In this document: piece after piece, positions 21,407 to 49,122 of the stretch
How positions within the stretch are numbered: position 1 is the stretch's first letter
Layout of the letters: each line of letters begins with the position of its first letter
From: Patescibacteria group bacterium
GTDB taxonomy: Bacteria; Krumholzibacteriota; Krumholzibacteriia; Krumholzibacteriales; Krumholzibacteriaceae
Assembly: GCA_035529435.1 (NCBI GenBank)
Contig: DATKWS010000154.1
Location: 22,064 to 86,063 of the forward strand
Length of the DNA stretch: 64,000 bases
Reading direction: 5' to 3'
The notes under the pieces: model-generated
Told to the model about the DNA's origin: nothing
Database searches by the model: none
The model's input: the letters and a program-made list of their open reading frames with translations, nothing else
Position numbers and translations under genes: made by a program

Positions 21407-21442
21407 GCGTGTTCCTCACATGAAGCAGTGCGATTATATTGA

Positions 21443-22762: not shown

Positions 22763-22783
22763 CTCTGGCCTCCTACCGGATAA

Positions 22784-24082: not shown

Positions 24083-24469
24083 GTTTTTTCCTTAACGCCC
24101 TGACATCCCCGGGGAGCAAACAGCCGCATCAGCGAGTGATCATATACTGAGATGTTCACTATGCTATTATAGTGTTTGGATACGCTCCGGTTCCAGCAAT
24201 ACTTATTATTATATAAATTTTTCTCTCATCGGCGCGTGACGGGTAATACCGGGATTCTCTGACCGACGGCATGGTAGCCGACGGCCCGAACGACGGCGAA
24301 CCACGCCCCGTCCGCCGGCGAGATGATTACGGGACCGGAATCACCGTTTACCTATATAAATAATATTAATTCTTGTTTACGCGGAAACAACATAATAGAT
24401 TTATAATAGGAATGTGACAGAATATGGCGCGTCGAGATGATCCGGCGCGCAACAGCGAGGCGATTAATC

Positions 24470-27970: not shown

Positions 27971-29611
27971 TCACCCGCCGTCTTTTTCGGTATAATGCGA
28001 ATGACGGAATGCGGCCGCCGCCGTCCGGTGCGCCGTCCGGTGCGCATGTATGAGCCCCGTCCGCTCGAGAATTTCATGATTTTCCAGCACCTCTGCAACC
28101 GGACCGGAGGCTGCGATGGTCCGGTCGGGCCCCAGGATGACGGCCTTCTCCCCGATATGCCTGGCGAGGAGGAGATCCTGCGTCGCGATGACGAGTGTCT
28201 TTCGCCGTTCGGAGAGTTCGGACAGGAGGTCGATCAGGGCGCCCTCCGTCGCCGGGTCGAGGCTTGCCGTCGGTTCATCCATCAGGTAGATCTCGGGATC
28301 GACCGTCAGGATGGATCCGATGGCGACGCGTTTCTTCTCGCCGCCGCTCAACCGGTACGGATAACGGTCGCCGAGGGCGTCTATGCCGAGCAGCTTCATC
28401 GCGTCTTCCACCACGCGCTCGAGCGCCTCGCCGCTCAAGCCCTTCTGAATCGGACCGAACGCGAGCTCGTCCCACACCGTCGGTGAGAAACACTGTATGT
28501 CGGGATTCTGGAAAACGAGCCCGACACTGCTCCGGAAAAACCGTCTGAATTCTTTCGCACGCAGGCGCTCCTCCGTGACGGCCCCGCCGAATGCGTCGAC
28601 CTCGCCGCTCTGAGGGAAGAGGAGTCCGTCGAGTATCCGCAGGAGCGTCGATTTGCCCGAACCGTTGGGACCGAGTATGACCGTACAGGTCCCCGCGTAT
28701 ATGCGCAGGGCATCGATCCGAATGCCGGGAGTGCCGTCGGGGTATGCATAGAAGACGTTCCGCAGCTCGAATACCCGGTCCACGCCGGGGTCCCCGCCCC
28801 GTTCAACCCGGTCCCCGCCGGTCCCCGCGCCGCCCGGTTCATGCCGCTCCGGACCGCTCCGCACGTCCGTACGCTCCGGACCGGCTGGTAGAGATGAACC
28901 ATCCACCGGATCGCTTCCTCGGGAAACCATTGCCAACTGCACTCCCTCGGCGAGGTGCAGGGACCGCACGAAGAGATACCCGGTACTTCGAAAGAGAAAG
29001 GAGAGCTCCATACGGTACGGGAGCGTCGAGATAACCCGGCTCGTGCGTGCCGCCAGCAGCTCGACGAGTGTTCTCAGCAGGAGGAGAAAATACCGGTATG
29101 ATATGGAGAGGAGCGACACGAGCACGTGAGGTGCCCGCAATTGCCCGAGTGCGCGTGTGACGATGTTCCACCGGGTGGTGAGTATCAGGAGCAGTGCGAA
29201 CGATACACTCGTCGAGACGCGCATGATGAGATAGACCGCGGTGGTGAGCCCCTCCCGCGTGATCGTGACGGGACCCACGGCGGCGGCCCGTTCCCCCGGC
29301 GTCATGAAGAGCGCCGGAATCGCGATCACTCCGGTAAAGAGTGGGATGAAAATCCATACCCGCTTGATGAAATCGAACGCTCCGATGCCGGAAAGGCAGG
29401 CCAACACCAGCGAAGCGGCGTACAGTACGAGCAGCACGGGGATGCTCCTCGTCAGGGAGCAGAGGAGCACGAGCAGCGGCAGGGCCACAATCTTGATCCG
29501 CGCGTCGATCGATTGCAGCAATCCGCCCGTACGTGCCCAGCGCTCGTTCGCCACCGTGTTTTCGATAAGGCGCGCGACTGCGGCGATATTCTTCTCAAGA
29601 GTGAGTGCCAT
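27971..29611 (-). CDS. ECF-transporter fusion: CbiQ/NikQ transmembrane (T) component fused to CbiO/NikO ATPase
   Basis: N-terminal about 270 aa polytopic CbiQ-like region. Acidic/Gly-rich linker. ABC ATPase with Walker A GPNGSGKST, signature LSGGEKKRV and Walker B IYLMDEP. No stop codon between the two halves. Confidence 0.7.
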   Translation of the reverse strand: MALTLEKNIAAVARLIENTVANERWARTGGLLQSIDARIKIVALPLLVLLCSLTRSIPVLLVLYAASLVLACLSGIGAFDFIKRVWIFIPLFTGVIAIPALFMTPGERAAAVGPVTITREGLTTAVYLIMRVSTSVSFALLLILTTRWNIVTRALGQLRAPHVLVSLLSISYRYFLLLLRTLVELLAARTSRVISTLPYRMELSFLFRSTGYLFVRSLHLAEGVQLAMVSRGSDPVDGSSLPAGPERTDVRSGPERHEPGGAGTGGDRVERGGDPGVDRVFELRNVFYAYPDGTPGIRIDALRIYAGTCTVILGPNGSGKSTLLRILDGLLFPQSGEVDAFGGAVTEERLRAKEFRRFFRSSVGLVFQNPDIQCFSPTVWDELAFGPIQKGLSGEALERVVEDAMKLLGIDALGDRYPYRLSGGEKKRVAIGSILTVDPEIYLMDEPTASLDPATEGALIDLLSELSERRKTLVIATQDLLLARHIGEKAVILGPDRTIAASGPVAEVLENHEILERTGLIHAHRTAHRTAAAAFRHSHYTEKDGG

Positions 29612-29915
29612 GCTTGACAAGCCTGCCGATGCCCAGTACCGCCGCGGTGGTGAGCCCCGCCCCGACGAGAGCGGAAAGGATCGTTCCCACTCCCGTCCGC
29701 CAGCCCTCCGCGGCGAGGCCCGGGAACTCGTACTCGGGGAAGGGCGCACTGGGGCGTTTTTTCTGCGCGTTACGCATTCCATCGGGTGCGAAGCCCACGA
29801 TCTCCGTGACGGAGTTGAGGTCCCATTCCCCCCAAGCGCTTCCGATCACGAGAATGCCGATCGGTGTCAGAATCGCCAGTACGATCAATGCAATCCAACC
29901 CCTGGTGTATCTCAT
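29595..29915 (-). CDS. CbiN/NikN small membrane component of Ni/Co ECF transporter
   Basis: About 106 aa with two TM helices (MRYTRGWIALIVLAILTPIGILVIGSAWGEW…). Its ATG overlaps the cbiM TGA (TGATG). Confidence 0.6.
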   Translation of the reverse strand: MRYTRGWIALIVLAILTPIGILVIGSAWGEWDLNSVTEIVGFAPDGMRNAQKKRPSAPFPEYEFPGLAAEGWRTGVGTILSALVGAGLTTAAVLGIGRLVKHGTHS

Positions 29916-30628
29916 CACGCTCCTCCCCCGCCACCGTCCGGCCCTGCGGACCGGGCGCCGGCGCTGAAGAGCTCGTGGTGGTAGCGTCCGAGAAAGGCGA
30001 CCACTCCTCCGGTGATGACGGCCTCCACCGCTCCGCCGGCGGTGAGATGCGGGATCATCATTGCCGGCACCGTCACCGAGACGTTGAAGGGGCAATAGAG
30101 AGGGGTTCCGTCGGGCAGGTGGTGGAACAGCGGCTGTAATCCCAGCTCCAGCGCAACGGCGAGTGCCGCCGCGTTCAGTCCGATATAGGCGCCGATCGCC
30201 GCCGCGGCGGTGAATCGGCGGCTTCCCGGTTCGGAGGAGCCGGCTACCGCCCTGAATACGAGGTACCCCACGAGCGGCATGACGAAGCCCATGTTGAAGA
30301 CGTTTGCGCCGAGTGCGAGGATACCGCCGTCACCGAAAAAGAGCGCCTGTATGGCGAGGGTCAGCGTGATCGCTAACAGGGCAGGCCAGGGGCCGACGAG
30401 GATCGCGATCAGAACTCCCCCGGCCGCGTGTCCGGTCGTTCCCCCGGGCAACGGGATATTGAACATCATGATGAGGAAGGAGAATGCCGCCAGGATGGCG
30501 AGCAACGGTATGTGCGCCTGCCCCAGGCGCGTGCGGACGGCGCGGAGAGACTGCCACCAGAGGGGGGCCGTCAAAAGATAAAATATCCCCGATGTATGCG
30601 GTGAAATGTACCCGTCGGGTATGTGCAT
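29915..30628 (-). CDS. CbiM/NikM substrate-specific component of Ni/Co ECF transporter
   Basis: Starts with the canonical MHIPDGY N-terminus required for metal coordination. Polytopic. Confidence 0.8.
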   Translation of the reverse strand: MHIPDGYISPHTSGIFYLLTAPLWWQSLRAVRTRLGQAHIPLLAILAAFSFLIMMFNIPLPGGTTGHAAGGVLIAILVGPWPALLAITLTLAIQALFFGDGGILALGANVFNMGFVMPLVGYLVFRAVAGSSEPGSRRFTAAAAIGAYIGLNAAALAVALELGLQPLFHHLPDGTPLYCPFNVSVTVPAMMIPHLTAGGAVEAVITGGVVAFLGRYHHELFSAGARSAGPDGGGGGA

Positions 30629-30791
30629 GAATCCTTCCCACAATCGTGTTATTTTTTATATTTTCGTAACACAACAAATCTATACGATGGCTCCGGTGCG
30701 GTCAAATAGTTTTCTGCTCCGGGAATATCGGATTGCCACGGGCGTTACAGCGTATTACCATGTAGTAGAGTACGTTACGGGAGAATCGAGC

Positions 30792-31920: not shown

Positions 31921-31941
31921 TATTAATAATGATTATTGACA
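31921..31941 (+). promoter_or_regulatory. putative Fur box in the fur promoter
   Basis: AT-rich palindromic AATAATGATTATT about 70 bp upstream of the fur start, resembling the GATAATGATAATCATTATC consensus. Confidence 0.3.
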
Positions 31942-32006
31942 AATAAACATGTTAGATGATAGAATGTACAATTGGGGCAACGCTGATCTGATAGGAGGAA
32001 CTGTTA

Positions 32007-32423
32007 ATGCACTCGTTTGATAAAACCATCCAGAAACTCCGACAGGAAGGTTTCAAGCTGACCCCGCAGAGGCTCGCCGTGATCAAGCACATGATCGGCA
32101 ACAGCAGGCATCCATCAGCGCTGGCGATTCATAAGGATCTGAAGCGCCGGTATCCGAGTCTTTCATTTTCGACCGTCTACAACACACTGAACATGCTCGA
32201 GAGGATCGAGGAGGTGCAATCGCTCAACGTCATCGACGGTCACCTGAATTACGATCCCGATATCAGCACCCATGGCCACTTCCTCTGCACCAAATGCGGC
32301 ACGATCCATGATATCCGTTTCGAGGATTGCGACGATATCAAGCTGCCGCAGGGCGAGATCGGAGGCCATACCATCTCCTCGATACAGGTATCATTCAAGG
32401 GGACGTGCAGGATTTGCCGCTAG
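32007..32423 (+). CDS. fur: Fur-family metalloregulator (Fur/PerR/Zur)
   Basis: 138 aa. Winged-helix N-terminus and C-terminal metal-site motifs HGHFLCTKCG…CxxC (structural Zn). Confidence 0.8.
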   Translation: MHSFDKTIQKLRQEGFKLTPQRLAVIKHMIGNSRHPSALAIHKDLKRRYPSLSFSTVYNTLNMLERIEEVQSLNVIDGHLNYDPDISTHGHFLCTKCGTIHDIRFEDCDDIKLPQGEIGGHTISSIQVSFKGTCRICR

Positions 32424-32432
32424 GAAGTTTTC

Positions 32433-33050
32433 GTGATAGCGCAGGGTTGGAAATGTTCGCAATGCGGTTTCATTACCGTTGACCTCTTCCCCCCCGATAA
32501 CTGCCCGAAATGCAACGCCGACCGATCGGCATTCGAAACGGAACATGCGGTCAAGTTTTCCCAGGATGAGCGCGATGGCGTATTCAATGCCTGCTGGAGC
32601 GTCAGCTACGGGCTGTACCTCGTCAGCTCCATAGACGGCGACAAGATGAACGGGCAGATATGCAACACGCTCTTTCAGATCACCAGCGATCCTCCCCGCA
32701 TCGCCATCGGGATCAACCACGGAAACCTCACGCACGAGTACATAGAGAAAAGCGGTGTTTTTGCTGCATCCGTCCTCGGTGAGAACGACCACAGGATCGT
32801 CCGGCGCTTCGGGTACCGGTCCGGCCGGGATTTCGACAAATTCAAGGGTGTTCCCCTATTCAAGGGGAAGACGGGATGTCCGATATACGAGAAGGCCGTT
32901 GCGTACATCGAGTGCACCATTCTCAGGGACAAGACGACCGACGCCGGCACGCACAGCATCTTCATCGGGGATATCGTGAACGGCGCCCGCCTCACGGAGG
33001 ACGTTCCGATGACGTACGCGTTCTACCACGAAACCAAGGATAAGATTTGA
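32433..33050 (+). CDS. rubredoxin-like zinc-ribbon fused to flavin-reductase-like (FMN-binding split-barrel) domain
   Basis: N-terminal WKCSQCGF…CPKC (two CxxC). Following domain matches flavin reductase-like fold (PRIAIGINHGNLTHEYIEKSGVFAASV…). GTG start with AGGAAG RBS. Confidence 0.65.
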   Translation: MIAQGWKCSQCGFITVDLFPPDNCPKCNADRSAFETEHAVKFSQDERDGVFNACWSVSYGLYLVSSIDGDKMNGQICNTLFQITSDPPRIAIGINHGNLTHEYIEKSGVFAASVLGENDHRIVRRFGYRSGRDFDKFKGVPLFKGKTGCPIYEKAVAYIECTILRDKTTDAGTHSIFIGDIVNGARLTEDVPMTYAFYHETKDKI

Positions 33051-33168
33051 TCGGGACACCACCGGTATCACTTCGGCGCGGCGTTCCCGGGTCCGGTGTT
33101 TCGGATATAATTCCCTTCACAAACGGATCGTATTGTGTTTTCCTTTCAATTCGGGAAGGCATCGAAAC

Positions 33169-34167
33169 GTGAAGAGCGAAGATCAAAAGAAGCAGATACT
33201 GGATATACTCTCCGGCGCGATCCTGCGGGAGACGGATGCGTTCAATTACTATCACCGGAACGCCGATGGTCCGTCGGCACCGCCCGCCGTACGCGGGCTC
33301 TTCTCGCGGCTGGCGGAGGAGGAGCGGGTCCACCGTCACCTGCTGATCAACGAATTTCTCTCGGTGAAGCGCGGGTGGCGCGAGGAGGAGGGGGAAGGGA
33401 TAAAACACATTCCCGCATTCAGGGTGCCCGACAAGATCCCCTTCCTTCCCCTTCGGACCGGGCCGGATCTCGATGCCGCCGCGGTCTGCCTGCCGGGGAG
33501 GCTCGTGGGTGGTGACAACGTATTCTCCGCGGTCGTGCGCGATCATGCCGGCAACGCGACGGGTACATTCCTCGTTCTGTATGATGCGATGGGGCACAGT
33601 TTCGAGACGACGGAAACAAACGCGCTTGCCGCCAGGATTGTCGGCGAGCATTTCGAAGCATCGAGCACGGCCCGTATGCAGCAGGAGCTCCTCGCTCCCG
33701 ATCTGGTGGCGAAACTGCTGAACGAGAAACTGCATGAGAAGTTCGACGGGCAGGGTGTTTTTATCACACTGTTCTGTGCGACGTTCGATACACGGAGTGC
33801 CACGATGTCCTATACCTGCGGCGGGCACGAGCCGCCATTCGTCGTTCGCGCGGACGGGCGGGTGGAATCGCTCCTCAACACGCAGCTCATCGTCGGGATC
33901 GATCCCGATTTCGACTATACCGCCGATGCGGTGCCGTTCGGGGAAGGGGACATTCTCTGCATCTTCACCGACGGGATTGTGGAGGCGAGAAACGAGGAGG
34001 GTGATTTCTTCGGCCGCAGCGGTGTGCAGGCGGTGCTTGCGCGGAGCGGTCCTGCAACGCCCCGCCAACTGATAGAGGACCTGCTCGAGGGGGTTCGGAA
34101 TCACTCGGCGGCCGAACTGATACAGGATGAGATTTCAATAGTTGTCGTCAGATCGAAAGGAGCGTAG
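33169..34167 (+). CDS. rubrerythrin/ferritin-like domain fused to PP2C-type (SpoIIE/RsbU) serine phosphatase
   Basis: N-terminal helix pair with E…ExxH (LRETDAFNYYH / EEERVHRH). C-terminal PP2C motifs GDNVFSAV, DAMGHSFE, CGGHEPP and FTDGIVEARN. Confidence 0.65.
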   Translation: MKSEDQKKQILDILSGAILRETDAFNYYHRNADGPSAPPAVRGLFSRLAEEERVHRHLLINEFLSVKRGWREEEGEGIKHIPAFRVPDKIPFLPLRTGPDLDAAAVCLPGRLVGGDNVFSAVVRDHAGNATGTFLVLYDAMGHSFETTETNALAARIVGEHFEASSTARMQQELLAPDLVAKLLNEKLHEKFDGQGVFITLFCATFDTRSATMSYTCGGHEPPFVVRADGRVESLLNTQLIVGIDPDFDYTADAVPFGEGDILCIFTDGIVEARNEEGDFFGRSGVQAVLARSGPATPRQLIEDLLEGVRNHSAAELIQDEISIVVVRSKGA

Positions 34168-34192
34168 CAGCGTGGCTCGACACGATTCCGAG

Positions 34193-34663
34193 ATGAAAAT
34201 GGCGATCGAGGGTGCGATCTACCGGGAGATAGGGGCGCGGGATTTCTACCGCACCATTGCCGAAGGTATTCAGAATGCGGAGGGGAAGGAGAAGTTCTCC
34301 CGGCTCTCGGAAGACGAGGACGGCCACCGGGCGAAGCTCGAGTCGTGGCTCGACAGGTTGTTCGGGGAATCATTCTCGCCGCAGCCGGACAAGCTCAAGG
34401 AGTCGGAGATCGGTGGGATCGGCATAGATGAACGCACGGGCGCGCTCGAAGCGCTGAACATAGCCATCGGTGCGGAGGAAGAGGCGGAGGCGTTTTACCG
34501 GAATCAGGCGGCCGGTACAGATATTCCGGAGCTGAGGGAGCTGCTGCTCGGTATAGCGGACGAGGAGCACGGCCATTTTGCGATGCTCGAGGCGGAACGG
34601 AATTCGATCATCGGCGGTTTCTACTGGTTCGATATGGATTCGACATCGTTTCTCGAGGACTGA
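34193..34663 (+). CDS. rubrerythrin-like diiron four-helix-bundle protein (no rubredoxin domain)
   Basis: Two E…ExxH pairs ([17 protein letters not shown] and [18 protein letters not shown]) characteristic of ferritin-like diiron sites. Confidence 0.65.
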
Positions 34664-34748
34664 CGGACATCCCGTCCTGTGGAACGCCGGCGAACGACCC
34701 GCCACGGGACGGCGCGATGCACCGGGGATGCAATGGGAGGTTTCATTG

Positions 34749-34865
34749 GTGAAAAAATGGAAGTGTACCCTCTGCGGATACATTCATACCGGCATGGAAC
34801 CCCCGGATGAATGTCCGGTCTGCGGGGCGCCGAAGGAGAAATTCGTCGAGTATGTCCTCGCATAG
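34749..34865 (+). CDS. mini rubredoxin-like zinc-ribbon protein (38 aa)
   Basis: [15 protein letters not shown]…[11 protein letters not shown], i.e. two CxxCG knuckles. GTG start 8 nt after a GGGAGG RBS. Confidence 0.5.
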
Positions 34866-34896
34866 ATCGGGGAGTATCTGTACGAGAGAGGAGACC

Positions 34897-35058
34897 ATGA
34901 TGGAAAAGTGGAAATGTACGTTGTGCGGTTACATCTACGATCCCGCCCTGGGTGACCCGGATAACGGCGTCGAGCCAGGTACGGCCTTCGAGGACCTCCC
35001 CGATGACTGGGTGTGCCCGGACTGCGGCGCCGGCAAAGAAGATTTCGAGAAGGTGTGA
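34897..35058 (+). CDS. rubredoxin
   Basis: 53 aa canonical [12 protein letters not shown]…[16 protein letters not shown]. Preceded by a GGAGA RBS. Confidence 0.85.
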
Positions 35059-35075
35059 CACCCACACCCGGTTGA

Positions 35076-36770
35076 TTGCGACGCAGTAGTCACCCGATGA
35101 GCCGAAACGATCGGGGGCTGCCGGATCGTGCTCGCTGCACGGGGCGGGAGACCACGGACGTGACAACGAATGAAGGAAATACCGCAGCGCCGCGACCGCA
35201 CGCTGAACGCAGGCGGTTTCTCGTTTCGATGGGTATCCTCGCGGGCGGCGCCCTCGTCGTGCGGGCCGCGTTCCTCGGGTGCCGCATGGTTCTCAGTGGT
35301 GACGAGGTTCATTATGCGGAATCGCTCCACCGGTTCATGGAGGGGAGGTTCACAGAGGGATTCTCCGATTACTGGTCGTTCTTCTATCCCTTCCTCGCAC
35401 TTCCGTTCGGAAAGATTTACGGGAGCGCAGAGCCGGCCCTGCGGCTGCTGTCCGTAATCTGCGGCGGCGCGGTCGTCGTGCCGTGCATGCTCATCGCGCG
35501 ACGCCTGTGGGGTGATCGCGCGGCCCTCCTGGCGGGAATCCTCATCGCGCTCCACCCAAGTCTCATACAATTTTCGACCGCCGCGATGACCGAGTCCCTC
35601 TCCGCGCTCCTTGTCTCGACCGCACTCTACCTGCTCATCCGGTTCCTGCAGGACGGCGGCAGATGGTTTTTTGTCGCCGGCGGTGTGGTGCTGGGGCTCG
35701 CTTACCTGACGCGCCAGGAGGCGCAGTTCATTCTCGCCCTCGTTGTTGTTGTCGTATTACTCGCCGGCGCGGGGACGGTTCCCCGGGGAAAGCGTCTTGT
35801 ACGCGCGGCGGTGCTGGCGGCGTTTTTCATAGTAACGATTCTCCCGAGCGTATTCTTGCTGCGGGCGAAGACGGGCCGGTGGACGGGGGGATCGAAGGCA
35901 TCGGTCAATCTCAGCTCACCGCTCATCTGGGAGGACGGCATCGAACGGGAACGGTACGTCTACGGCCTGAACGAATCCGGCACGGGGCGCCGTATCGATG
36001 AGATCGGTAGGGAGAGCGTCCTTGCAACGCTCTGGCGACAGCGGGACGCGGTGGTCTCCCGGTACTTCCCGAACCTCACGAGGGGAGTCGCCCTTCTGCC
36101 GAACCTCCTCGCCAGTCCGTTTCTCCTGCTCCTCGTGCCCCTCGGGCTGTTCGGGCGGGGATGGCGGCGGGGGGATCGCATGATTGAATTCGTGCTCCTC
36201 CTCGTCGGCATTCTTCCGTTCGTTCTCTATGCCGTTTTCCGGATCGATTTCCGGTACCTCGTTCCGTTTCTGCCCGTGTACCTCCTGTGGGGCGCACGGG
36301 GGTGTGGTGTGCTCGTCTCGTGGCTGCGTGAGAATGTATCACCGCGACCGATTCTATCCGTGATCACCCTGTTCGTTATCCTGGCGAGCCTCGTTCCATT
36401 CACGGTACGGCGCTATGCTCTTCTGGCCGCGAGCCAGCCGGTCGAGTACCGTGAGATCGGACGGTGGATCAGGGACAACGGCGGCGGGGGCGCCATGATT
36501 CTCGCGCCGTCGGGTTGGTCGGTCGGGTACTACGCGGGGAATCCGCTCGCCACCTTTATACCATGGACCGATCCGGACGGGCTCATCCGCTATGCCCGGT
36601 ACCACCGGTTCGAGTATCTCGTGCTCGGTACCGCGTATATCGAACACGCACGGCCGGCGCTCGAGCCGCTCGTCCGTGAGCCTGAGTACCCGGGATTCGA
36701 ATTGATACATACCTTTACAGACCGGTCCGGCGGAGAGATATTACTCTACCGCCTCGGCACCACCTCCTGA
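35076..36770 (+). CDS. GT39/ArnT-like (PMT family) membrane glycosyltransferase
   Basis: Polytopic. N-terminal extracytoplasmic-loop DE motif (SGDEVHYAE) typical of the GT-C PMT/ArnT family. Confidence 0.6.
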   Translation: MRRSSHPMSRNDRGLPDRARCTGRETTDVTTNEGNTAAPRPHAERRRFLVSMGILAGGALVVRAAFLGCRMVLSGDEVHYAESLHRFMEGRFTEGFSDYWSFFYPFLALPFGKIYGSAEPALRLLSVICGGAVVVPCMLIARRLWGDRAALLAGILIALHPSLIQFSTAAMTESLSALLVSTALYLLIRFLQDGGRWFFVAGGVVLGLAYLTRQEAQFILALVVVVVLLAGAGTVPRGKRLVRAAVLAAFFIVTILPSVFLLRAKTGRWTGGSKASVNLSSPLIWEDGIERERYVYGLNESGTGRRIDEIGRESVLATLWRQRDAVVSRYFPNLTRGVALLPNLLASPFLLLLVPLGLFGRGWRRGDRMIEFVLLLVGILPFVLYAVFRIDFRYLVPFLPVYLLWGARGCGVLVSWLRENVSPRPILSVITLFVILASLVPFTVRRYALLAASQPVEYREIGRWIRDNGGGGAMILAPSGWSVGYYAGNPLATFIPWTDPDGLIRYARYHRFEYLVLGTAYIEHARPALEPLVREPEYPGFELIHTFTDRSGGEILLYRLGTTS

Positions 36771-37160
36771 AAATACGATCCGGCACCAAAACCGCGGCCC
36801 CGTGATCCGGACCGGTACCGATCCACGGTACGGCTTTCGTATGTGGTGTGCCGTTTCCTTTGATTTCCAATCATGCCGTATCGTATCCCGTGCATTCGAT
36901 CTATTTCCCGTTGCCGCCAATTGTTCCCGGTTGTTCCCGGCCGTTTCCCACGGCGTCCACCGGCCTGTCATGATTCTTCATGCGGTGTATTGATATCCCC
37001 CCTATTGTGAATAATTCTTGCAATATTGTTCCTGCAGACAACGTCACGGATGCGCCGTGAAAAGTATAAGTCAATTATTTTTAATGACTTCGTTCGATTT
37101 CACCACATGCCGGCCATGGCGGAAAATCGAGCGGTATGGTGAGTTTCATTTCAGCCGATT

Positions 37161-38714
37161 ATGCAAAACCTGAGTTTCAAGATACAGATCGCCATGCTTG
37201 TCAGCCTGCTTGTTGCGGGGCTCGTGGCCGCATTTTCCTGGACGGTTGCCACGCGGGAACGGAGCATGATTCTATCGGAGGTTCTCCACCGCGTGGTTCT
37301 GCAGGGCCGGAACCTGGCGCTCAGCTCGGCAAAACCGCTTTTACACGAGGATCCCGAGTTTGAATTGCATCCACTCGTTGCCAAGGTAATCGAATACGAT
37401 CACGATGTTGTTTCGATCGTCGTGGTCGATCACAATAGCGTTATCAAGGGCCACCGGGACGTTGCGGCTATTGACAAGGTATACATACCGTTAAAAGAGC
37501 TCAGGCCCATAGATCAGGTCACGCACCAGTCGGCCGGCGAGACATTCAGGGAAAACGAGAGTTTCATCGAGGTGTCCGTTCCCGTCACCGATCGGAGGGA
37601 GAGAATCGGGACGGTATACCTTCAATACTCCAAACGGGGGATTCGCGAGGCCATGGATACCATCAAGGGGAGGATACTGCGCATCGGCCTTTTTGCGCTC
37701 GCCGTGGGTGTACTGCTCTCCCTTCTGCTCGCCTTCCATATTACGAGTCCCATCAGTAAACTGACACGGGGCGCCGAATCGATCGGCCGCGGGAATCTCG
37801 ACACGAGGATCAAGATCAGGTCGGTGAAGGAGATTCAGGCACTCGCGCACACCTTCAACGAGATGGCCAGGAGTCTCGAGGAGAGTCACCGCGCGATGCT
37901 CGACAAGGAGAGGATGGAGAAGGAGCTCGAGATCGCGCGCGAGATCCAGGAGACGCTCCTGCCGGCGCATCTGCCGCATCTGCGCAATTTCGAAATTGAT
38001 GCATACTACCATCCCGCCTCCCAGGTCGGTGGTGACTATTTCGATCTCATACGGGTCGACGAGCGGCACCTCATGATCGTTGTCGGCGATGTCGCGGGCA
38101 AGGGCGTTCCCGGTCTCGTCATCATGGCGATGGCGAGAATTCTCGTGCGGCATTTGGCGCTCAAGGGGGAGCGGCCGTCGAAACTTCTGCGTCATCTCAA
38201 TGTGCTCCTGAAGCGCGATATGAAACGGAACCTCTTCCTGACTCTTTTCTGCGGTTTACTCGATACCCACGATGGCACACTCCGATTCGCCAGCGCGGCC
38301 CACATGCCGCTCATCGTGTATCACAGCAACGAACAGATGGTACGCATGATGAGTACGAAGGCCAGGCCGGTCGGGATCTTTTCGGACGAGGTGTTTTCGC
38401 AGGGGCTCGAGGAATATGTCGTTTGTCTCCAACCCGGTGATCTGCTTCTCCAATTCACCGACGGTCTCAACGAGATGCGCGACCCTGCCGGGAATGAGTT
38501 CGGGATAGAGAGGATCATGCAGACGGCATACGACGAGGCGAAGGGTGGCGCCCGGCACCTGATCGCGGAGATAAAGCGGAGACTCGGGGAATTTCGTCAT
38601 GGCGAACTGCAGAGCGACGATCTCACGCTCCTCGCGGTGAGCGCGCTGCCCGCCGGCATGGAGAGGGTAAACGAGGAACGTATGGAGATCCTCGACAGGG
38701 TGGTATTCGATTGA
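37161..38714 (+). CDS. membrane sensor-HAMP-PP2C serine phosphatase (RsbU/SpoIIE family)
   Basis: TM1, about 150-aa periplasmic domain, TM2, HAMP, then PP2C motifs GGDYFD, VGDVAGKG and FTDGLNE. Confidence 0.75.
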   Translation: MQNLSFKIQIAMLVSLLVAGLVAAFSWTVATRERSMILSEVLHRVVLQGRNLALSSAKPLLHEDPEFELHPLVAKVIEYDHDVVSIVVVDHNSVIKGHRDVAAIDKVYIPLKELRPIDQVTHQSAGETFRENESFIEVSVPVTDRRERIGTVYLQYSKRGIREAMDTIKGRILRIGLFALAVGVLLSLLLAFHITSPISKLTRGAESIGRGNLDTRIKIRSVKEIQALAHTFNEMARSLEESHRAMLDKERMEKELEIAREIQETLLPAHLPHLRNFEIDAYYHPASQVGGDYFDLIRVDERHLMIVVGDVAGKGVPGLVIMAMARILVRHLALKGERPSKLLRHLNVLLKRDMKRNLFLTLFCGLLDTHDGTLRFASAAHMPLIVYHSNEQMVRMMSTKARPVGIFSDEVFSQGLEEYVVCLQPGDLLLQFTDGLNEMRDPAGNEFGIERIMQTAYDEAKGGARHLIAEIKRRLGEFRHGELQSDDLTLLAVSALPAGMERVNEERMEILDRVVFD

Positions 38715-38738
38715 GGAAGTACTGAACGGGGTTTCGAT

Positions 38739-39848
38739 ATGAGGCTCGAAATGTTCGACAGGGAAACGATGACTGTCTGCGTGAGCTGCGCGGACCGGCA
38801 GGATTGGGATATCCTCGACAAGCTCTCCAGCCTCATCGCGGTCTCCTCGGATTGCGGATTCAACCGGATCATATTCGAGCCGCCGTCACGCCTGCCTCTG
38901 CCGGTCGGTATGGCGCTCGAGCAGCTTGCCCGCCGTAACGGGGTCATCCTTTCCGCCGCCGATGAAAGCGCCGCCGGGGAGGCGAAGGACGAGTTCGGTT
39001 TCGTCGTGGTGAGCAGGGAGTCCAGTTTTATCTGCCTCCGTGATTCGGGCGATGATATGCATTACCAGCTCTACCTCGAGGCCTGCGAGGAGAACGTCGA
39101 TCTCGGCGCGCGTCTCGCCTACCTGCTCGCAAACGTGCTCGGTTTCACGAGCCTCATCTCGTTCGAGATTCGTTTCAGCGTGTACGAGCTCCTCAACAAC
39201 ATTTTCGAGCACGGTCTCGAGCAGGGTGCCAGCCAGTGGGTCGAATTGATCATCGAGAAAAAGCGAGATAAGCTGTCGGTTTCGCTGGTCGACAAGGGAG
39301 TCGCGTTCGATCCGACAAGGGATGAGAAATTCAACCTGGCACGGTACCTGGAATCGGGCAAGAAACGGGGGCTCGGTCTCGTCATGACACGCAGGATAGC
39401 GGGGCGGATGCAGTACCATCGGGATGGGGAATTCAACAAGATCCATTTCGAGAAATCGGATTCATTCCCCGGAGGGACTCTCCGGGCCGTAAAGGAGGAG
39501 ACAATGGCACAGTTCATAGTCGGTGAACCGGTCCGCACGGAGGACGGTTCCTCCCTCATGGCGCTCGAGGGCGATCTCGATACGAAAGGCGCTCTTGTCA
39601 TGGAGGATCTGATGTCGCAGCTCCTCGACCAGAAGATGTTCCGCGTGATCTTCGATTTCGAAAAGGTACCGTTCGTGTCAAGCGCGGGAGTGGGAATTCT
39701 TCTCGGGATCGTATCCTCGCTCCGCGAGGAGGGTGGGGAGGTTACCCTGTTGAACGTTTCGCCGAAGGTGAAGTCGGTGTTCAGGCTTCTCAATCTCGAT
39801 GACTATTTCACCATCGCCGACTCACGGGATTCGTTTGTCGAATTCTGA
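38739..39848 (+). CDS. fusion of RsbW/SpoIIAB-type serine kinase (GHKL ATPase) with C-terminal STAS anti-sigma-antagonist domain
   Basis: Central HATPase_c N-box ELLNNIFEHG and G-box GLGLVMTRR. C-terminal STAS with the phospho-acceptor region FVSSAGVGILLG. N-terminal about 110 aa of unknown function. Confidence 0.6.
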   Translation: MRLEMFDRETMTVCVSCADRQDWDILDKLSSLIAVSSDCGFNRIIFEPPSRLPLPVGMALEQLARRNGVILSAADESAAGEAKDEFGFVVVSRESSFICLRDSGDDMHYQLYLEACEENVDLGARLAYLLANVLGFTSLISFEIRFSVYELLNNIFEHGLEQGASQWVELIIEKKRDKLSVSLVDKGVAFDPTRDEKFNLARYLESGKKRGLGLVMTRRIAGRMQYHRDGEFNKIHFEKSDSFPGGTLRAVKEETMAQFIVGEPVRTEDGSSLMALEGDLDTKGALVMEDLMSQLLDQKMFRVIFDFEKVPFVSSAGVGILLGIVSSLREEGGEVTLLNVSPKVKSVFRLLNLDDYFTIADSRDSFVEF

Positions 39849-39871
39849 GAACCATCACGGAGGAATTCTGG

Positions 39872-41317
39872 ATGAGCAAGGCGCCGCCTGAACAGACGTG
39901 CCGCAGCGAACCTGATGTGAAACGGCTCGAGGAAAGTCTCGAGAAGCGGAATATCACATTCGAGGCGCTGTTCGGACTGTTCGAGAAGATCGGAACGACG
40001 CTGGACCTGGCAACGATCGTCCGGCTCTTCCTGCTCACCCTCATGGGACAACTCAGGTTGAAACGCATCGCCTTGTATCTTGCTTCCTCGGATGGAACGC
40101 GGTTCGTGATGCATCACGCGCTGGGTATCGGCCGGCAGGTGCTGCCGACGGCCTTCTGCGTGGAGCACACGCTCACGCGCTGGTTGCGGTCGGAAAAGGA
40201 CGCTCCGCATATAGACAGTTTCTTCAATGAGTACAAGGGCGAGGTGCCCGGGGAGACGGCCGGTTTTCTCGGGGAAATGGCCGGGCGAAGTTTCGCCTAT
40301 GCGTATCCCCTTACCGATCGGGATGAGTTGCTGGGAGCGGTGTTCTTCAGCGGGAAGGTGACGGGGGAGGGATTCTCACAATTCGACAACGAGCTGCTGC
40401 GGATGCTCGCCAAGGTTGCCACCATCACGATCAGGAATGCGGCACTCTACCGCTCGGCGGTGCAGTCCAAGCAGGAGCTCGAGAGGTTTTCACGGATCAA
40501 GAAGGAGTTCATCAACCACACCTCGCACGAGTTGCGGACGCCGATCACCGTTCTCAAGAGCGCACTCTGGTCGATCGAATCGGACGAGATCGATGAAGGC
40601 GTACTGATCGATATGTCCAAGGATGCCGTGCTCAGGATGCAGGACAAGATCGAACAACTGCTCTCGCTCAACGATATCGAATTGAACGCGACCGCATTCG
40701 ACCTCGCCCGGACCGATGTCTCGTCGCTGCTGGAGGAGTGCCTGCGCGAGATCATCCCCGAGCTCGAGGAGAAACAGATAACGGTCGATCTCGATGACCG
40801 CGCCCGTTACCGGGAGATCATGGTCGATGCCGCCAAGATGAAGCTCGTGCTGCGCGGTATCATCGATAACGCCGTCAATGCTGTCGAGAGGGGCGGCACC
40901 ATTTCGATCGTGACCGATGTCACGGATATCCCGCCGGGGGGCGGCGATGGGATCGAGATACCCGATTGGTCGACTGTCGCGGAGGGACCGCTTCCGTATT
41001 CCCCGTGTGATGCGGCGGACAACGAGCACGCAGGTACCGGCCCGTCACGGAACTTCACCGATTTTCATCCATCGAGCCAGGGATCGTTCCTCGTCATGCG
41101 CATGCGGGACGACGGCGTCGGTATACCGGCCGACGAGATCATGGCCGTTTCCGAGCCGTTCCGGCGGGCCTCGAATTCTCCCCTGAAAAACGTCAAGGGG
41201 CTCGGCATCGGTCTCTCCGTCGCGTTGAAGATCATCGCGGGACACGGCGGGCGGCTCTTTTGTAGAAGCGAAGAGGGAAGAGGGACGGAATTCTCTATCT
41301 GGCTGAACGCCGATTGA
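39872..41317 (+). CDS. cytoplasmic GAF-domain sensor histidine kinase (no cognate response regulator adjacent)
   Basis: GAF domain. HisKA H-box HTSHELRTPITVL. HATPase_c with an about 50-aa insertion before the G-boxes. Confidence 0.75.
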   Translation: MSKAPPEQTCRSEPDVKRLEESLEKRNITFEALFGLFEKIGTTLDLATIVRLFLLTLMGQLRLKRIALYLASSDGTRFVMHHALGIGRQVLPTAFCVEHTLTRWLRSEKDAPHIDSFFNEYKGEVPGETAGFLGEMAGRSFAYAYPLTDRDELLGAVFFSGKVTGEGFSQFDNELLRMLAKVATITIRNAALYRSAVQSKQELERFSRIKKEFINHTSHELRTPITVLKSALWSIESDEIDEGVLIDMSKDAVLRMQDKIEQLLSLNDIELNATAFDLARTDVSSLLEECLREIIPELEEKQITVDLDDRARYREIMVDAAKMKLVLRGIIDNAVNAVERGGTISIVTDVTDIPPGGGDGIEIPDWSTVAEGPLPYSPCDAADNEHAGTGPSRNFTDFHPSSQGSFLVMRMRDDGVGIPADEIMAVSEPFRRASNSPLKNVKGLGIGLSVALKIIAGHGGRLFCRSEEGRGTEFSIWLNAD

Positions 41318-46119: not shown

Positions 46120-49068
46120 TTAAGGCGCTTGAGTGGGTGCACTCTGGTCTGATCGTGCGGCGCAACGTTCGACGCCGGGATCGAATCTTCCACAGCAGAT
46201 GAGGGGCGCCCATAAGTGAATATTATCAAAGGTATTACCGGAAGCACGGCTCTTCTCTATCATCTCTCTCTGCATGGCGCAGAGCGCCGCAGTGGCCGAT
46301 GACGCGCCGCCCCACAACTTTTCATAGAACGATGTTACGGCCCTCTCGGCGGCGGCATCCTCTATCGGCCACAGCGAACCGACTACCATGTGTGCGCCGG
46401 AGCGGACGAACGCCCCCGCCAGTCCCGAACCCGCCTGAGCGTACTGTGTGCCGCCCCCGACCGATTCGCACGCCGCAAGAAAGACGAGCCGAACATGCGA
46501 CAGATCGAGCCTCAGAATTTCTTGTTCATCGAGAAGAGCGCCCGAGAGCTCTCTCTCGCCGGTGATCTCCCCGGAAGGTGAGAGGAGGAGGGCCGTTTTT
46601 CCGCTGTGCAGGGGGTAGTGTATGGAGTGTGATGAGATGTGTACCAGGTCGGAACGCTCGATACGGGCGAGTAACGCCTGCCTGGTTGCCCCCGTCCCCT
46701 GGAGCACCGTGCCGTTCTCGAAGAATTGTTGCAGCCGGACAAGCTCCCTTCCGGCGTAATGGAGGGAATCGAGGCGGGGGTAGATCCTGCGCGCGAGATC
46801 GGGAATGACGGCATTGCCGACAATGAGCGGTGCCCGGAAACGCGGTGCGGCCGTCCCGCCGGATTCGCCGGGAGCAGCCACGGGTTCATACTGTGGATCG
46901 GCGGTGCCGGGCACCGCACGGGTGGTCTTCCCACTGCCGGTGTGCAGATCGAGCAGGCTGGGGGAGACGAATATCGTTTTGGATTCCAGGAGAAACCGGT
47001 CCGAGCCGCGAGCCGCCAGGGCGCCGAACGGCAGAAGACGGAGGACGCCGTCGGGGATAAAGCAGAGTATCTCGGCGGATTCGACGAGGGGCGCGAGCGG
47101 CTCGATCAGAAAGCCGTAGAGACGGGATGTAATCCCGGCGATACGGTCCCGGTTCAGGCCGGGTCCGGAATGTCGATCGCTGACGGACGGCCCGCACTGC
47201 TCGATGAACGCGCGCACCTCCCGGTCGAGCGTCACGCTCTCCACGGCGACGCACCGGTGCGTGGCGCCGTTCCTGTTCAACGCCACGAGTATCAACCGGT
47301 CCGGCGTGATCGTGGTTTGGACGATGAGGGCGCACTCCGGAATCCATGCCCGGTCCGCAATGCATGACCTGATGGAATCGTCGAGGGCCATGGATGGGAC
47401 GGACCGGCCGCAGGGATCAGCGTGCCGCGACCGCTCGGCCCAGAAGAGAACGGAATCGGCCCCATGCGATGTCTCGCTGTCGAGACGTATAAGGTCGTCA
47501 TAGATCGAATCGACCAGTTGCACGAGGAAGTGCCTGTTTTCCACGTGCGGTTTCCGCAACGATTCCTCCTCGAAGAGGGCAATGGCGCCTGCGAGAATCT
47601 TTCGGCCGTCGTTCCGGTTCCCCCGGCTGATCTTTGTTTTTCCGAGGAGCCGGCACGATTCGATTTGCTGCATCCAGTAATTTTCCTCGATCGCCAGGCG
47701 CACGGCCTCATCGAGGAGTTCCTCGGCCTGTCGGTAGCGATGCTGCTCGAAGTGGAGACGGGCCATCGCCGTCGTGTATTCGGCCACCCGGCGGTTCTCC
47801 CGAAGCCTGTGTGAGACGGCCAATGCACGTTCGTAACAGGAAAGTGCCTCCTCGGTCTTTCCCGCCGCCGCGTATGTATCGCCGAGCTGTTTCTCCAACT
47901 CGGCGATGTAGTGTTGATCGATGCCGCGCTGTGCGATCGACAGCGCTTTTTCCATTTTGGCGATCGCCTCGCCGAGGTTTCCCGCCGCGCGCTGGATACG
48001 GGAAAGGAGTGCGAGTCCCGATGCAAGGTACTGCTCCGTCGCGTGCGTAACGTAGATGCCGGTCTCGGGTGAGTCGCCGCTCAGCAGTTCCTCGGCGAGA
48101 AGCGTCGATTTCTCCGCGATGCCGGCGGCGCGGTTCGTTTCGCCGAAGCTGTTGAGTAACCGCGCGAGTGTGAGATTTCGAGAGATGGAGCAATTCGGAT
48201 CACAGGCGTGTTCGCTGCAGCGGCAGGCCTGCACGAGCAGGGATTCCGCTTCGACGGTGAATCCTTCGGTGCCGCGGAGGCAGCCGAGAAACGAGAGGGC
48301 CCGGCTCAGGTAGTAGGGGTCCCCGCATCGCTCTGCGTTCGAGAGGCTCAACCGGTAGGCCGCGTCCGCAGCCTCGAAATTCCCCTTCCGCACGTGATAG
48401 GCGCCGATCCGGCCCGAGATGTAACTCACACTTGGCAGGTGCTCGGTATCCCTGTACGTATCGAGGGCCTCCTCGAGGCAGCGCACCCCCTCGGGATCGC
48501 GCCCCGAGGCGAAATAGTAATCGGCGAGCGTTTCGAGCCCTTTGCCGGTCCACCGGCCGCATCCGGCGTCTTCAAGGGCCGCGATGCTCTCCCGGAGGAC
48601 CGTCTCTATCTCCTCGGCCCGGTCGAGCTCATCGTAGATTCTGTCATGGCACCGCACAATGCACCTGCGCGCCGCCGTGTACGCGCTCAATTTCCGCTCG
48701 TCATCGAGGAGGTCTGCGATCAGGAGGGAAAAGTGACGCGAGTGGAACGCCGAATCGAGCAGGTAGGCGATTTTCCCGGCCTCCACGGCGCAGTAGGCGA
48801 AGGTCCCCTGCGCACCGCGTTCATGCGCCTCGAGAAGAAGGTTGAATTGCGGGCTCAGTGCTTTCTCGCTCCAGATGAAGCCGCTTTTTTCGAAGAGTGC
48901 CACGGCGGCGTCATCGCTCAAGAGCTGGGCCGGAATCCCTGATACTTTCACGTACTCGAGGTTGTACATCTCGCCGTCTCCGGGCGCGGGGGCGAGGTGC
49001 ACCGCTGCGCTGATGATGATGTAGGCGAGCGCCGCGTACGCCGGGATATGATAGCGAACTGGTTTCAT
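46120..49068 (-). CDS. TPR-repeat protein with C-terminal CHAT (caspase-like) domain, membrane-anchored
   Basis: N-terminal TM helix. Many TPR-like repeats. C-terminal CHAT with the His/Cys dyad region (VHISSHSIHYP… and LVFLAACESVGG). Confidence 0.7.
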   Translation of the reverse strand: MKPVRYHIPAYAALAYIIISAAVHLAPAPGDGEMYNLEYVKVSGIPAQLLSDDAAVALFEKSGFIWSEKALSPQFNLLLEAHERGAQGTFAYCAVEAGKIAYLLDSAFHSRHFSLLIADLLDDERKLSAYTAARRCIVRCHDRIYDELDRAEEIETVLRESIAALEDAGCGRWTGKGLETLADYYFASGRDPEGVRCLEEALDTYRDTEHLPSVSYISGRIGAYHVRKGNFEAADAAYRLSLSNAERCGDPYYLSRALSFLGCLRGTEGFTVEAESLLVQACRCSEHACDPNCSISRNLTLARLLNSFGETNRAAGIAEKSTLLAEELLSGDSPETGIYVTHATEQYLASGLALLSRIQRAAGNLGEAIAKMEKALSIAQRGIDQHYIAELEKQLGDTYAAAGKTEEALSCYERALAVSHRLRENRRVAEYTTAMARLHFEQHRYRQAEELLDEAVRLAIEENYWMQQIESCRLLGKTKISRGNRNDGRKILAGAIALFEEESLRKPHVENRHFLVQLVDSIYDDLIRLDSETSHGADSVLFWAERSRHADPCGRSVPSMALDDSIRSCIADRAWIPECALIVQTTITPDRLILVALNRNGATHRCVAVESVTLDREVRAFIEQCGPSVSDRHSGPGLNRDRIAGITSRLYGFLIEPLAPLVESAEILCFIPDGVLRLLPFGALAARGSDRFLLESKTIFVSPSLLDLHTGSGKTTRAVPGTADPQYEPVAAPGESGGTAAPRFRAPLIVGNAVIPDLARRIYPRLDSLHYAGRELVRLQQFFENGTVLQGTGATRQALLARIERSDLVHISSHSIHYPLHSGKTALLLSPSGEITGERELSGALLDEQEILRLDLSHVRLVFLAACESVGGGTQYAQAGSGLAGAFVRSGAHMVVGSLWPIEDAAAERAVTSFYEKLWGGASSATAALCAMQREMIEKSRASGNTFDNIHLWAPLICCGRFDPGVERCAARSDQSAPTQAP

Positions 49069-49122
49069 GTCCGGTCCCCGTTCGCTGTATACTATAGCAG
49101 AAAAATACAATAATAATAATGA

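Follow-up and report, generated by a model that had tools for sequence, protein, structure and literature searches.

A half-ferritin hairpin on a PP2C phosphatase in a PerR-type stress operon, next to a sigma-less kinase-STAS module

RsbU/SpoIIE-family PP2C phosphatases start stress responses in many bacteria. The 64-kb stretch of contig DATKWS010000154.1 analysed here (the window), from a genome of the Krumholzibacteriota type, encodes two proteins of this family within a run of ten co-oriented open reading frames (ORFs) on the + strand, at 32007-41317, which we number g1-g10 in order. One of them, g3, joins the phosphatase to a two-helix, ferritin-type hairpin and lies among genes for defence against peroxide and oxygen; the other, g8, is a membrane sensor phosphatase encoded with a fused kinase-STAS protein (g9) and a histidine kinase (g10). 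The cluster is two adjacent transcription units, unit 1 (31925-36770), which contains g1-g7, and unit 2 (37005-41317), which contains g8-g10. The conserved half-ferritin phosphatase in a PerR operon is a new combination of known signalling parts, and the remainder of the cluster is a recognisable PerR regulon together with a sigma-less, partner-switch-like module. A previous description made from the letters of the DNA (the sequence-only reading) had found the same ten co-oriented genes and had named domains that are each backed by Pfam now that the profile hidden Markov model check has been run. That observation was largely correct; its interpretation as an interleaved single operon is not.

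The sigma-B switch of Bacillus subtilis, like this locus, has SpoIIE/RsbU PP2C phosphatases, a GHKL serine kinase that carries the N, G1 and G2 boxes, and a STAS domain in which the phospho-serine position is conserved. RsbU and RsbP both act on RsbV, and the set of RsbU, RsbP, RsbV and RsbW is a model for how one STAS domain could receive the input of two phosphatases that sense different things. The locus differs from the sigma-B switch in that no sigma factor or other switched partner was identified, the kinase and STAS domains form one polypeptide with an extra N-terminal domain, the sensor domains are not RsbU-N or PAS but HAMP plus a periplasmic domain in one phosphatase and a ferritin-type hairpin in the other, and a histidine kinase is co-encoded. 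Fusion of kinase and STAS substrate has a parallel in Rv1364c of Mycobacterium tuberculosis, a sensor-PP2C-GHKL kinase-STAS protein that autophosphorylates and autodephosphorylates its fused STAS domain (PMC7693655) and whose RsbU and RsbW domains match g3 and g9 structurally. Here, by contrast, the phosphatases are separate proteins, g9 runs from its N-terminal domain through the kinase to STAS, and a PAS sensor is lacking; SigF is the sigma factor to which Rv1364c is tied, whereas none is linked to this module. A sigma-less kinase/phosphatase switch with a non-transcriptional output, SiaABCD of Pseudomonas aeruginosa, is outlined in PMC7647112. Its membrane HAMP-PP2C protein SiaA is the top NCBIfam model for g8 (72 bits against a cut-off of 700 bits) and provides the best structural match for g3; unlike SiaABCD, the STAS domain here is fused to the kinase rather than being a SiaC-type protein, and no diguanylate cyclase is encoded nearby.

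The perR-rbr-rdl operon of Desulfovibrio vulgaris is one of the PerR-controlled rubrerythrin operons. Unit 1 has a further precedent in the rbr1-perR-rbo operon of Clostridioides difficile, which is under PerR control (PMC8546684): in both, the gene for a Fur-family peroxide repressor is grouped with those for rubrerythrin, rubredoxin-type proteins and a reductase, and the repressor has a box at its own promoter. Unit 1 departs from such operons by adding a PP2C phosphatase and a GT-C glycosyltransferase and by having its rubrerythrin, as it appears, split between two genes.

For the hairpin of g3 the nearest physical model is the encapsulated ferritin EncFtn of Rhodospirillum rubrum, whose ferroxidase centre is made at a dimer interface by E32, Y39, E62 and H65 of two chains, and whose assembly is induced by Fe2+ (PMC5012862). 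Like EncFtn/EncB, g3 has a two-helix half-ferritin with E21, Y28, E52 and H55 in the same order and at nearly the same spacing. Unlike EncFtn, its hairpin is fused to a PP2C enzyme domain, has no targeting peptide, binds iron by prediction, and is closer by sequence to rubrerythrin-like proteins with two repeats; no encapsulin-type match that might mark g3 as cargo turned up in the ORFs that were scanned, whether of the window or of related loci. The di-iron sensors that have been characterised are hemerythrins fused to methyl-accepting chemotaxis protein, GGDEF, HD-GYP or P-type ATPase modules (PMC9388753). With these oxygen or redox sensors (DcrH, Bhr-DGC, Bhr-HD-GYP) g3 shares the concept of a non-haem di-iron helical bundle placed on a signalling output. 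It differs in its fold family and in its ligands, which are of the carboxylate-rich ferritin/rubrerythrin kind and not the His-rich hemerythrin kind, and the hemerythrin sensors have a complete four-helix bundle in each chain and no PP2C among their characterised outputs.

The hairpin and phosphatase of g3

The g3 gene (33169-34167, +) encodes 332 amino acids (aa), with the half-ferritin hairpin at residues 1-70 and the PP2C/SpoIIE phosphatase at about 82-332; the identical database protein, P0001, has the same length. The protein had been read as a rubrerythrin-PP2C fusion, and both domains are found by Pfam (SpoIIE/PP2C, 8e-35; Rubrerythrin, 4.6e-5), but the rubrerythrin match covers only residues 24-76 and the part in question is half of a four-helix bundle. 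A rubrerythrin forms the whole bundle from one chain with two E...ExxH pairs, while the g3 hairpin has a single E...ExxH. In the AlphaFold2 model (pLDDT 90.4) two antiparallel helices, residues 3-32 and 39-69, precede a PP2C fold that is closest to the PP2C domain of SiaA, its best match, and also resembles SpoIIE and the RsbU domain of Rv1364c. Searched as a profile, the hairpin matches the two-repeat rubrerythrin-like protein 2FZF (9e-7, in both of its halves), the EncFtn of Pyrococcus furiosus (5N5E, 1e-4), EncB (8.5e-3) and sulerythrin.

Conservation in the family falls on both active parts of the protein. In 63 relatives, down to 32% identity, the putative iron ligands E21, Y28, E52 and H55 are invariant, and so are the catalytic and metal-binding residues D116, D139, D268 and D320 of the phosphatase. 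The hairpin has further invariant acidic residues at E50, E51 and E62, and the remainder of it is variable. This pattern bears on the proposal that the hairpin, left over from a duplicated half of a rubrerythrin, serves as a metal-free scaffold or for dimerisation and that g3 is controlled through PerR-dependent transcription only. A local duplication would fit the 39% identity between the hairpin and the first half of g4 next to it, the Pfam score of the hairpin is weak, and the helical N-terminal domain of RsbU serves purely for dimerisation and partner binding (PMC12143880). Against such a remnant, the iron ligands of EncFtn (E, Y and ExxH) are kept in 63 of 63 members while the rest of the hairpin varies, and the additional acidic cluster is invariant as well. 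We think a metal-free hairpin unlikely.

The hairpin probably arose from half of the neighbouring rubrerythrin-like gene, to judge by its identity to the first half of g4 and by the distribution of matches in a profile search. That search, against 1.84 billion representatives, returned in its top 150 either g3-type proteins (about 325-342 aa) or rubrerythrin-like proteins of 140-180 aa with two repeats; other fusion partners were not evident in that top 150. Members of the g3 family are proteins of about 330 aa, known so far from metagenome-assembled genomes (MAGs) labelled Krumholzibacteriota, Latescibacterota, Eisenbacteria, Aegiribacteria or Fermentibacteraceae. P0001 itself is labelled 'Patescibacteria group bacterium', which misfits its relatives: those of g3 and of the neighbouring genes all come from MAGs of the Krumholzibacteriota type (FCB group), and the G+C content of the window is about 60%. 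The label is probably a binning or taxonomy error.

Phosphatases of the RsbU/SpoIIE subfamily are activated via dimerisation that is driven by their N-terminal domains, and the N-terminal sensor domains listed for the subfamily are RsbU-N, PAS, receiver, GAF and HAMP (PMC12143880). Ferritin and rubrerythrin go unmentioned in a survey of the architectures of bacterial PP2C proteins (PMC12088040), and our search of the literature for a rubrerythrin, ferritin-like or hemerythrin domain on a PP2C/SpoIIE phosphatase found no description. The claim that something not yet described is encoded here is supported for the conserved PP2C with a di-iron-type domain in a stress operon.

The neighbourhoods of g3 and g9 homologues were gathered from genomes and metagenomes (related loci are given L numbers). 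The g3 gene is the sole signalling gene truly embedded in the stress operon, and its placement is conserved across genomes of the Krumholzibacteriota type. It is spaced 0-4 nucleotides (nt) from g2 and/or g4 in the window and in L088 and L089, and its homologue adjoins rubrerythrin-like genes in L001, L003, L007, L009, L088 and L089. The two functions had been described as interleaved; the other three signalling genes, g8-g10, form a contiguous block.

A PerR-type operon around g3

Unit 1 is a PerR-type, self-regulated operon for defence against peroxide and oxygen. Its first gene, g1 (32007-32423, +; 138 aa), encodes a member of the Fur family (Pfam FUR, 2.4e-24, residues 14-128). To that extent the earlier assignment to Fur was sound, but the type looks to be PerR by NCBIfam model, structural alignment and ligand positions. 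Among NCBIfam models PerR (NF052545) scores highest, with 111.4 bits where its cut-off is 180 bits, and the Fur, Irr and Zur models score lower; the closest solved structure is B. subtilis PerR (2FE3, 6.7e-21), which aligns over its full length without gaps. Residues H35, D83, H89, H91 and D102 of g1 align, at an offset of +2, with H37, D85, H91, H93 and D104, which we take to be the regulatory ligands of B. subtilis PerR, the last of them Asp and not Glu; the Cys4 zinc site, presumably C96, C99, C136 and C139 in that protein, is matched by C94, C97, C134 and C137. On these positions g1 looks like a PerR rather than a Fur, and we rank the Fur reading below PerR.

A Per/Fur-type box, AATAATgATTATT, lies upstream of g1 at 31925-31937 (+) as a perfect palindrome that overlaps the -35 element of the g1 promoter. 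The promoter of unit 1 (31925-31965 with the box, +) is near-consensus, matching 11 of 12 scanned positions: TTGACA at 31936-31941 is followed after 18 nt by TAGAAT at 31960-31965, with a TG extension. The box fused to TTGAC is kept upstream of the regulator gene in L001, L003 and L006 (62-78% identity), where the flanking DNA differs. The palindrome has four hits in the window against 0.02 expected by chance. One copy, with a single mismatch, is at 24198-24210, upstream of msrAB (24437-25612), a typical gene for the repair of oxidative damage. An exact copy at 49115-49127 falls where a zf-HC2/TPR anti-sigma gene (49123-50040, -) and a TPR-CHAT gene (46120-49110, -; 996 aa) meet, at a junction of 12 nt, with a gene for a sigma factor resembling the extracytoplasmic function (ECF) type upstream (50149-51126, -). 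The extra copies may point to a wider PerR regulon.

The structural genes of unit 1 make up a set of redox proteins and one membrane enzyme. The g2 product (32433-33050, +; 205 aa) combines a rubredoxin-like domain with a flavin reductase (RUBY_RBDX, 8e-10; Flavin_Reduct, 3e-32) and is predicted to be an NAD(P)H-driven electron donor; its homologue adjoins that of g3 in L001, L003, L006, L007, L008, L088 and L089. Directly 3' of g3 in the window, and in most relatives, is g4 (34172-34663, +; 163 aa), a rubrerythrin-like di-iron protein without a rubredoxin domain. Pfam Rubrerythrin matches it in two stretches (7.8e-15), its nearest solved structure is 2FZF (1.4e-10), and each half carries an E...ExxH, as read from the sequence, so that it has the two pairs of a complete four-helix bundle. 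A C-terminal rubredoxin-like Cys4 domain, which in a rubrerythrin is on the same chain, is here the separate g5 (34728-34865, +), a rubrerythrin-type rubredoxin-like mini-protein of 45 aa (RUBY_RBDX, 6.9e-17) whose homologues are found at the equivalent position in L006, L088 and L089 with 74-79% identity. Together g4 and g5 appear to amount to a split rubrerythrin. A rubredoxin, g6 (34900-35058, +; 52 aa), follows (Pfam Rubredoxin, 4e-25; NCBIfam RubredRD, 102.6 bits against a cut-off of 90). The last gene, g7 (35076-36770, +), encodes a polytopic GT-C glycosyltransferase, PMT_2/ArnT-like and of the 12-transmembrane type (PMT_2, 5e-13; PMT and STT3 also match), and its homologue comes after the rubredoxin gene in L001, L003, L006, L088 and L089. 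It had been counted among the ten genes of the cluster and left undescribed.

Several gene starts were revised from the identical database protein and from gene calls, namely those of g3 (33169), g4 (34172, from 163-aa calls), g5 (34728) and g6 (34900); the start of g7 is uncertain, its relatives having 531-555 aa. Gene callers overlooked g5 on identical contigs, and L088 has one additional rubrerythrin-like gene, of 164 aa.

The neighbourhood of unit 1 is rich in metal-handling genes. A transporter of the CbiMNQO type (27971-30643, -) lies just upstream of the stress operon, and in relatives there is also a NikR gene there. Divergent from msrAB is a CusABC-like heavy-metal efflux operon (18206-24082, -) whose products are OEP, an HlyD protein that has a heavy-metal-binding domain, and AcrB.

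Unit 2 and its separation from unit 1

The spacers from g1 to g10 measure 9, 118, 4, 64, 34, 17, 390, 24 and 23 nt. None is an overlap, and the short or overlapping spacers that had been claimed throughout fail at the 390-nt gap between g7 and g8 (36771-37160), which divides the gene set. A conserved 17-nt element, TTGTGAATAATTCTTGC (37005-37021, +; also written TTGTGAATAGTTCTTGC), stands in this gap 156 nt upstream of g8; its consensus, kept before g8 in six lineages, is TTGTGAAT(A/G)(A/G)TTCTTGC. With two mismatches at most, the element is found upstream of g8 homologues in L001 (position 13042), L088 (6565), L089 (6076), L093 (405) and L096 (7), upstream of the g9 homologue in L107 (170), upstream of a gene for a giant FlgD_ig protein in L003 (13632) and at the matching position after the PMT gene in L006 (6823). 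It precedes unit 2, or the giant gene in loci that have one, by 150-390 nt, in spacers that are otherwise unconserved, and on this pattern it is a candidate promoter or operator of unit 2. As a sigma-54 promoter the element would fit the -24/-12 arrangement in its length and in its 3' TTGCW, but the -24 GG is TG, and the assignment was not adopted. A sigma-70 scan of the g7-g8 spacer found no promoter-like site on the + strand. The Rfam scan of the whole window gave zero matches at gathering thresholds and, in this spacer, one sub-threshold chance hit only.

The first gene of unit 2, g8 (37161-38714, +; 517 aa), encodes a membrane sensor phosphatase with a periplasmic domain of about 140 aa between two transmembrane segments, read from the sequence, followed by HAMP (5e-14) and PP2C (SpoIIE, 7e-43); the periplasmic part of its relatives gives a weak sCache_3_2 match. 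The g9 product (38739-39848, +; 369 aa) has an N-terminal alpha/beta domain (residues 1-115), an RsbW/SpoIIAB-like serine kinase (117-240), a disordered linker and a STAS domain (258-365), with Pfam matches to HATPase_c_2 (5e-13) and STAS (1.3e-15). Its AlphaFold2 model (pLDDT 81.8) has three parts, of which the kinase matches SpoIIAB/RsbW and the STAS domain SpoIIAA/RsbV. The N, G1 and G2 boxes of a GHKL serine kinase are conserved, and Ser315 of the STAS domain is invariant and aligned with the phosphorylated Ser58 of SpoIIAA. The N-terminal domain (38739-39083) is confidently folded, and no sequence relatives of it were detected in Pfam or the PDB; it is a candidate output or partner-binding domain. 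Few of its residues are conserved (C39, N67 and Y109). An exact look-up of g9 in an assembly index gave no match; a copy with 100% identity is present on a short JGI contig, L090. The third gene, g10 (39872-41317, +; 481 aa), encodes a soluble GAF-HisKA-HATPase_c histidine kinase with an intact H-box, SHELRTP, again read from the sequence (HisKA, 3.8e-8; HATPase_c, 1.3e-15; GAF at a marginal 22.7 bits, cut-off 22.4), and its homologue follows that of g9 wherever the contig extends far enough.

The switch had been called complete. Its enzymes are all present, but kinase and STAS, which in a partner switch are separate proteins, are fused in 89 of the 89 g9 family members found, and no switched partner could be identified. 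It had also been said that neither sigma factor nor response regulator is present. For the latter this holds throughout the 64 kb: searches by tblastn with CheY and PhoB, together with Pfam scans of about 40 ORFs, found no receiver domain, and no response regulator adjoins g10 homologues in related loci, L087 having one 9 kb off on the other strand. For the former it needs amending, as the window has one sigma-like gene, of the ECF type and with its own zf-HC2 anti-sigma, 9 kb from the cluster on the other strand. The same Pfam scans, with tblastn searches using SpoIIAA and the domains of g9, revealed, in the 64 kb, no STAS or RsbW-like domain other than those of g9.

Comparison of neighbourhoods shows what unit 2 travels with. 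Conservation of the gene neighbourhood had been named as the test that could refute the sequence-only reading, and the neighbourhood is conserved: at 70-87% identity L001 repeats the order of all ten genes together with the genes that flank them, and at about 50% identity the stress operon stands beside the switch module in L088 and L089. At that distance, however, two blocks can be told apart. The g3 block contains the regulator, the rubredoxin-flavin reductase, g3, the rubrerythrin-like protein, a rubredoxin-like protein or rubredoxin and the PMT glycosyltransferase, and the g8-g9-g10 triad is conserved as a block of its own. In the complete genome CP070727.1 the blocks are about 12 kb apart, with genes for a 3351-aa FlgD_ig protein and a 663-aa TPR protein between them. 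In L087 unit 1 is not within 10 kb of the switch module, and in L088 and L089 an antisense gene for a PAS-like protein of 114 aa separates the two units. That antisense gene is absent from the 390-nt gap of the window. The single-PAS genes (113-114 aa) are at 6030-6374 (-) in L088 and 5472-5816 (-) in L089, and the homologue in the window, with 41-47% identity, is 15 kb away at 17217-17555 (+).

Where loci have enough DNA upstream of g8, a TPR gene is found there in 13-14 and the genes of unit 1 in five. The order giant gene, TPR gene, g8, g9, g10 persists down to 25-30% identity of g9, so that the commonest and most deeply conserved partners of g8-g10 are the giant FlgD_ig and TPR proteins and not iron or oxygen genes. 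This suggests a functional tie between the switch module and a large protein that is secreted or at the surface. Examples of the five-gene cluster are L086 (1-8364), L087 (3856-8405), L091, L099 and L116-L120; the proteins are a giant FlgD_ig protein of 880 to more than 3300 aa, a TPR protein of about 650 aa, the HAMP-PP2C, the kinase-STAS and the histidine kinase. A search of the window for the giant and TPR genes, whether as remnants or moved elsewhere, found none. As the 17-mer precedes the giant gene in L003 and has the matching position in L006, our reading of these arrangements is that the ancestral unit 2 began with the giant gene and that the lineage of the window lost the first two genes and kept the 17-mer.

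The sequence-only reading held that one Fur-headed operon of ten genes co-transcribes the stress enzymes and the partner switch as an integrated device for sensing redox state and iron. The ten genes are indeed co-oriented, no terminator-like site was found on the + strand between g7 and g8, the compact order occurs again in L001, and unit 1 is beside unit 2 at about 50% identity in L093 as well as in L088 and L089. Yet the spacer contains a separately conserved 17-mer, an antisense gene or some 12 kb of giant and TPR genes can stand between the units, most g8 homologues with sufficient upstream DNA have TPR rather than unit 1 before them, and the regulator at the head is PerR-like. With g8-g10 behaving as an independent unit that has its own conserved upstream element, we consider a single ten-gene operon quite improbable.

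How g3 may work, and on what

The explanation that best accommodates the whole locus, and to which we give slightly better than even credence, is that of two units in which g3 is an iron- or peroxide-gated phosphatase and possibly a second input into the phospho-STAS domain of g9. Peroxide would inactivate the PerR-like repressor and unit 1 would then be transcribed. By analogy with known anaerobe systems, electrons from NAD(P)H would enter at g2, the flavin reductase that carries a rubredoxin-like domain, move on to g6 and g5 and from there to g4, which would reduce H2O2 and possibly O2. The same transcript would deliver the membrane glycosyltransferase g7 and the phosphatase g3. The hairpin, which is the sole regulatory domain of g3, holds one Glu, one Tyr and one ExxH and so has half a di-iron site, and a dimer would therefore be needed for a centre: two g3 subunits would pair, in the manner of encapsulated ferritins, into a four-helix bundle whose di-iron centre lies between them. 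The iron loading or the oxidation state of this centre would set both dimerisation and phosphatase activity, a gating that is proposed because the ligands are conserved and because EncFtn behaves in this way.

In unit 2, the RsbW-like kinase domain of g9 would phosphorylate Ser315 of its own fused STAS domain, as in Rv1364c, and g8 would remove the phosphate in response to a periplasmic signal. Output from this sigma-less switch may be through the N-terminal domain of g9, through the histidine kinase g10 or through both. To this g3 would add a second, cytoplasmic input of iron or peroxide, acting on the same phospho-STAS domain in the manner of RsbU and RsbP. Phospho-Ser315 of g9 is the most economical substrate for g3, which with g8 would then provide two inputs; the case is circumstantial, being built on the STAS domain of g9 as the only one in the 64 kb and on the recurrence of the two families on the same contigs, in at least six assemblies. 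Any functional link between the switch and the redox genes, such as the sequence-only reading proposed, would run solely through g3.

A number of findings weigh against this proposal. Homologues of g3 are found with no g9 homologue nearby in L009 and in the Aegiribacteria/Fermentibacteraceae loci L004, L011 and L012, and g9 modules occur with no unit 1 nearby, as in L087 and many loci of the TPR context. The g9-less loci and the tie of unit 2 to the giant and TPR genes both weaken the link between g3 and g9. The flanking HhH-GPD, peptidyl-prolyl isomerase, PhzF and S9 peptidase genes are also syntenic, and the adjacency of the units may reflect general collinearity. No group-3 sigma factor or other switched partner is present in the cluster or in the conserved neighbourhoods. 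In g3 the linker (residues 73-79) is short and disordered, unlike the coiled coil described for RsbU, and for the regulator the g1 score is under the PerR cut-off of NCBIfam and the box cannot tell Fur from PerR.

The Aegiribacteria/Fermentibacteraceae loci have surroundings of their own. In L004 and L012 (9447-11361) a gene for a BLUF blue-light sensor is upstream of the g3 homologue, and in L011 (9296-13145) the upstream gene encodes 176 aa with no assigned function. All three loci have an LMWPc-like (low-molecular-weight phosphotyrosine-phosphatase) gene and a PDZ protein gene downstream, and no rubrerythrin or rubredoxin genes.

Several of these findings would be expected if g3 had nothing to do with unit 2. 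It would then be a peroxide-induced phosphatase with its substrate elsewhere, either another STAS protein or a protein of a different kind, unit 2 would control a function of the giant and TPR proteins, and their adjacency here would be synteny inherited after the loss of two genes. The g3 homologues at g9-less loci, the retention of the giant-TPR-g8-g9-g10 order to 25-30% identity, the 17-mer before the giant gene in L003, the lack of a giant or TPR homologue in the window and the synteny of the flanking genes all fit such a separation. SpoIIE-family PP2Cs typically target STAS-type substrates, however, and the fold matches of g3 are to that family; the sole STAS domain of the 64 kb sits in g9; and g3 and g9 homologues share contigs in the assemblies mentioned above. 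We regard unrelated neighbours as a real but lesser possibility, and continue to prefer g3 as a gated phosphatase with g9 as its potential target.

A broader version of the preferred proposal can be put forward only tentatively. In it the g3 family would be a new class of cytoplasmic iron/peroxide sensors in which the occupancy or oxidation state of a di-iron site between two EncFtn-like hairpins gates dimerisation and activity of a PP2C phosphatase, and the response would have two tiers, transcriptional derepression by way of PerR first and then post-translational signalling into a Ser/Thr phospho-switch, g9 and g10.

Our findings correct the picture of the locus: the kinase-STAS/histidine kinase module is part of a five-gene cluster of wide conservation, which also encodes a giant surface protein and a TPR protein. 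The g3 protein is small (332 aa) and soluble and allows clear predictions for point mutants, so that its biochemistry is feasible even though the organism is uncultured. If the gating proposed for it is true, metal- or redox-dependent dimerisation that switches a phosphatase on would be a simple and testable physical mechanism, and the hairpin would be the first ferritin-type sensor domain on a signalling enzyme, the known di-iron sensors being of the hemerythrin type. It would also mean that a classical anaerobe peroxide regulon is linked to protein phosphorylation.

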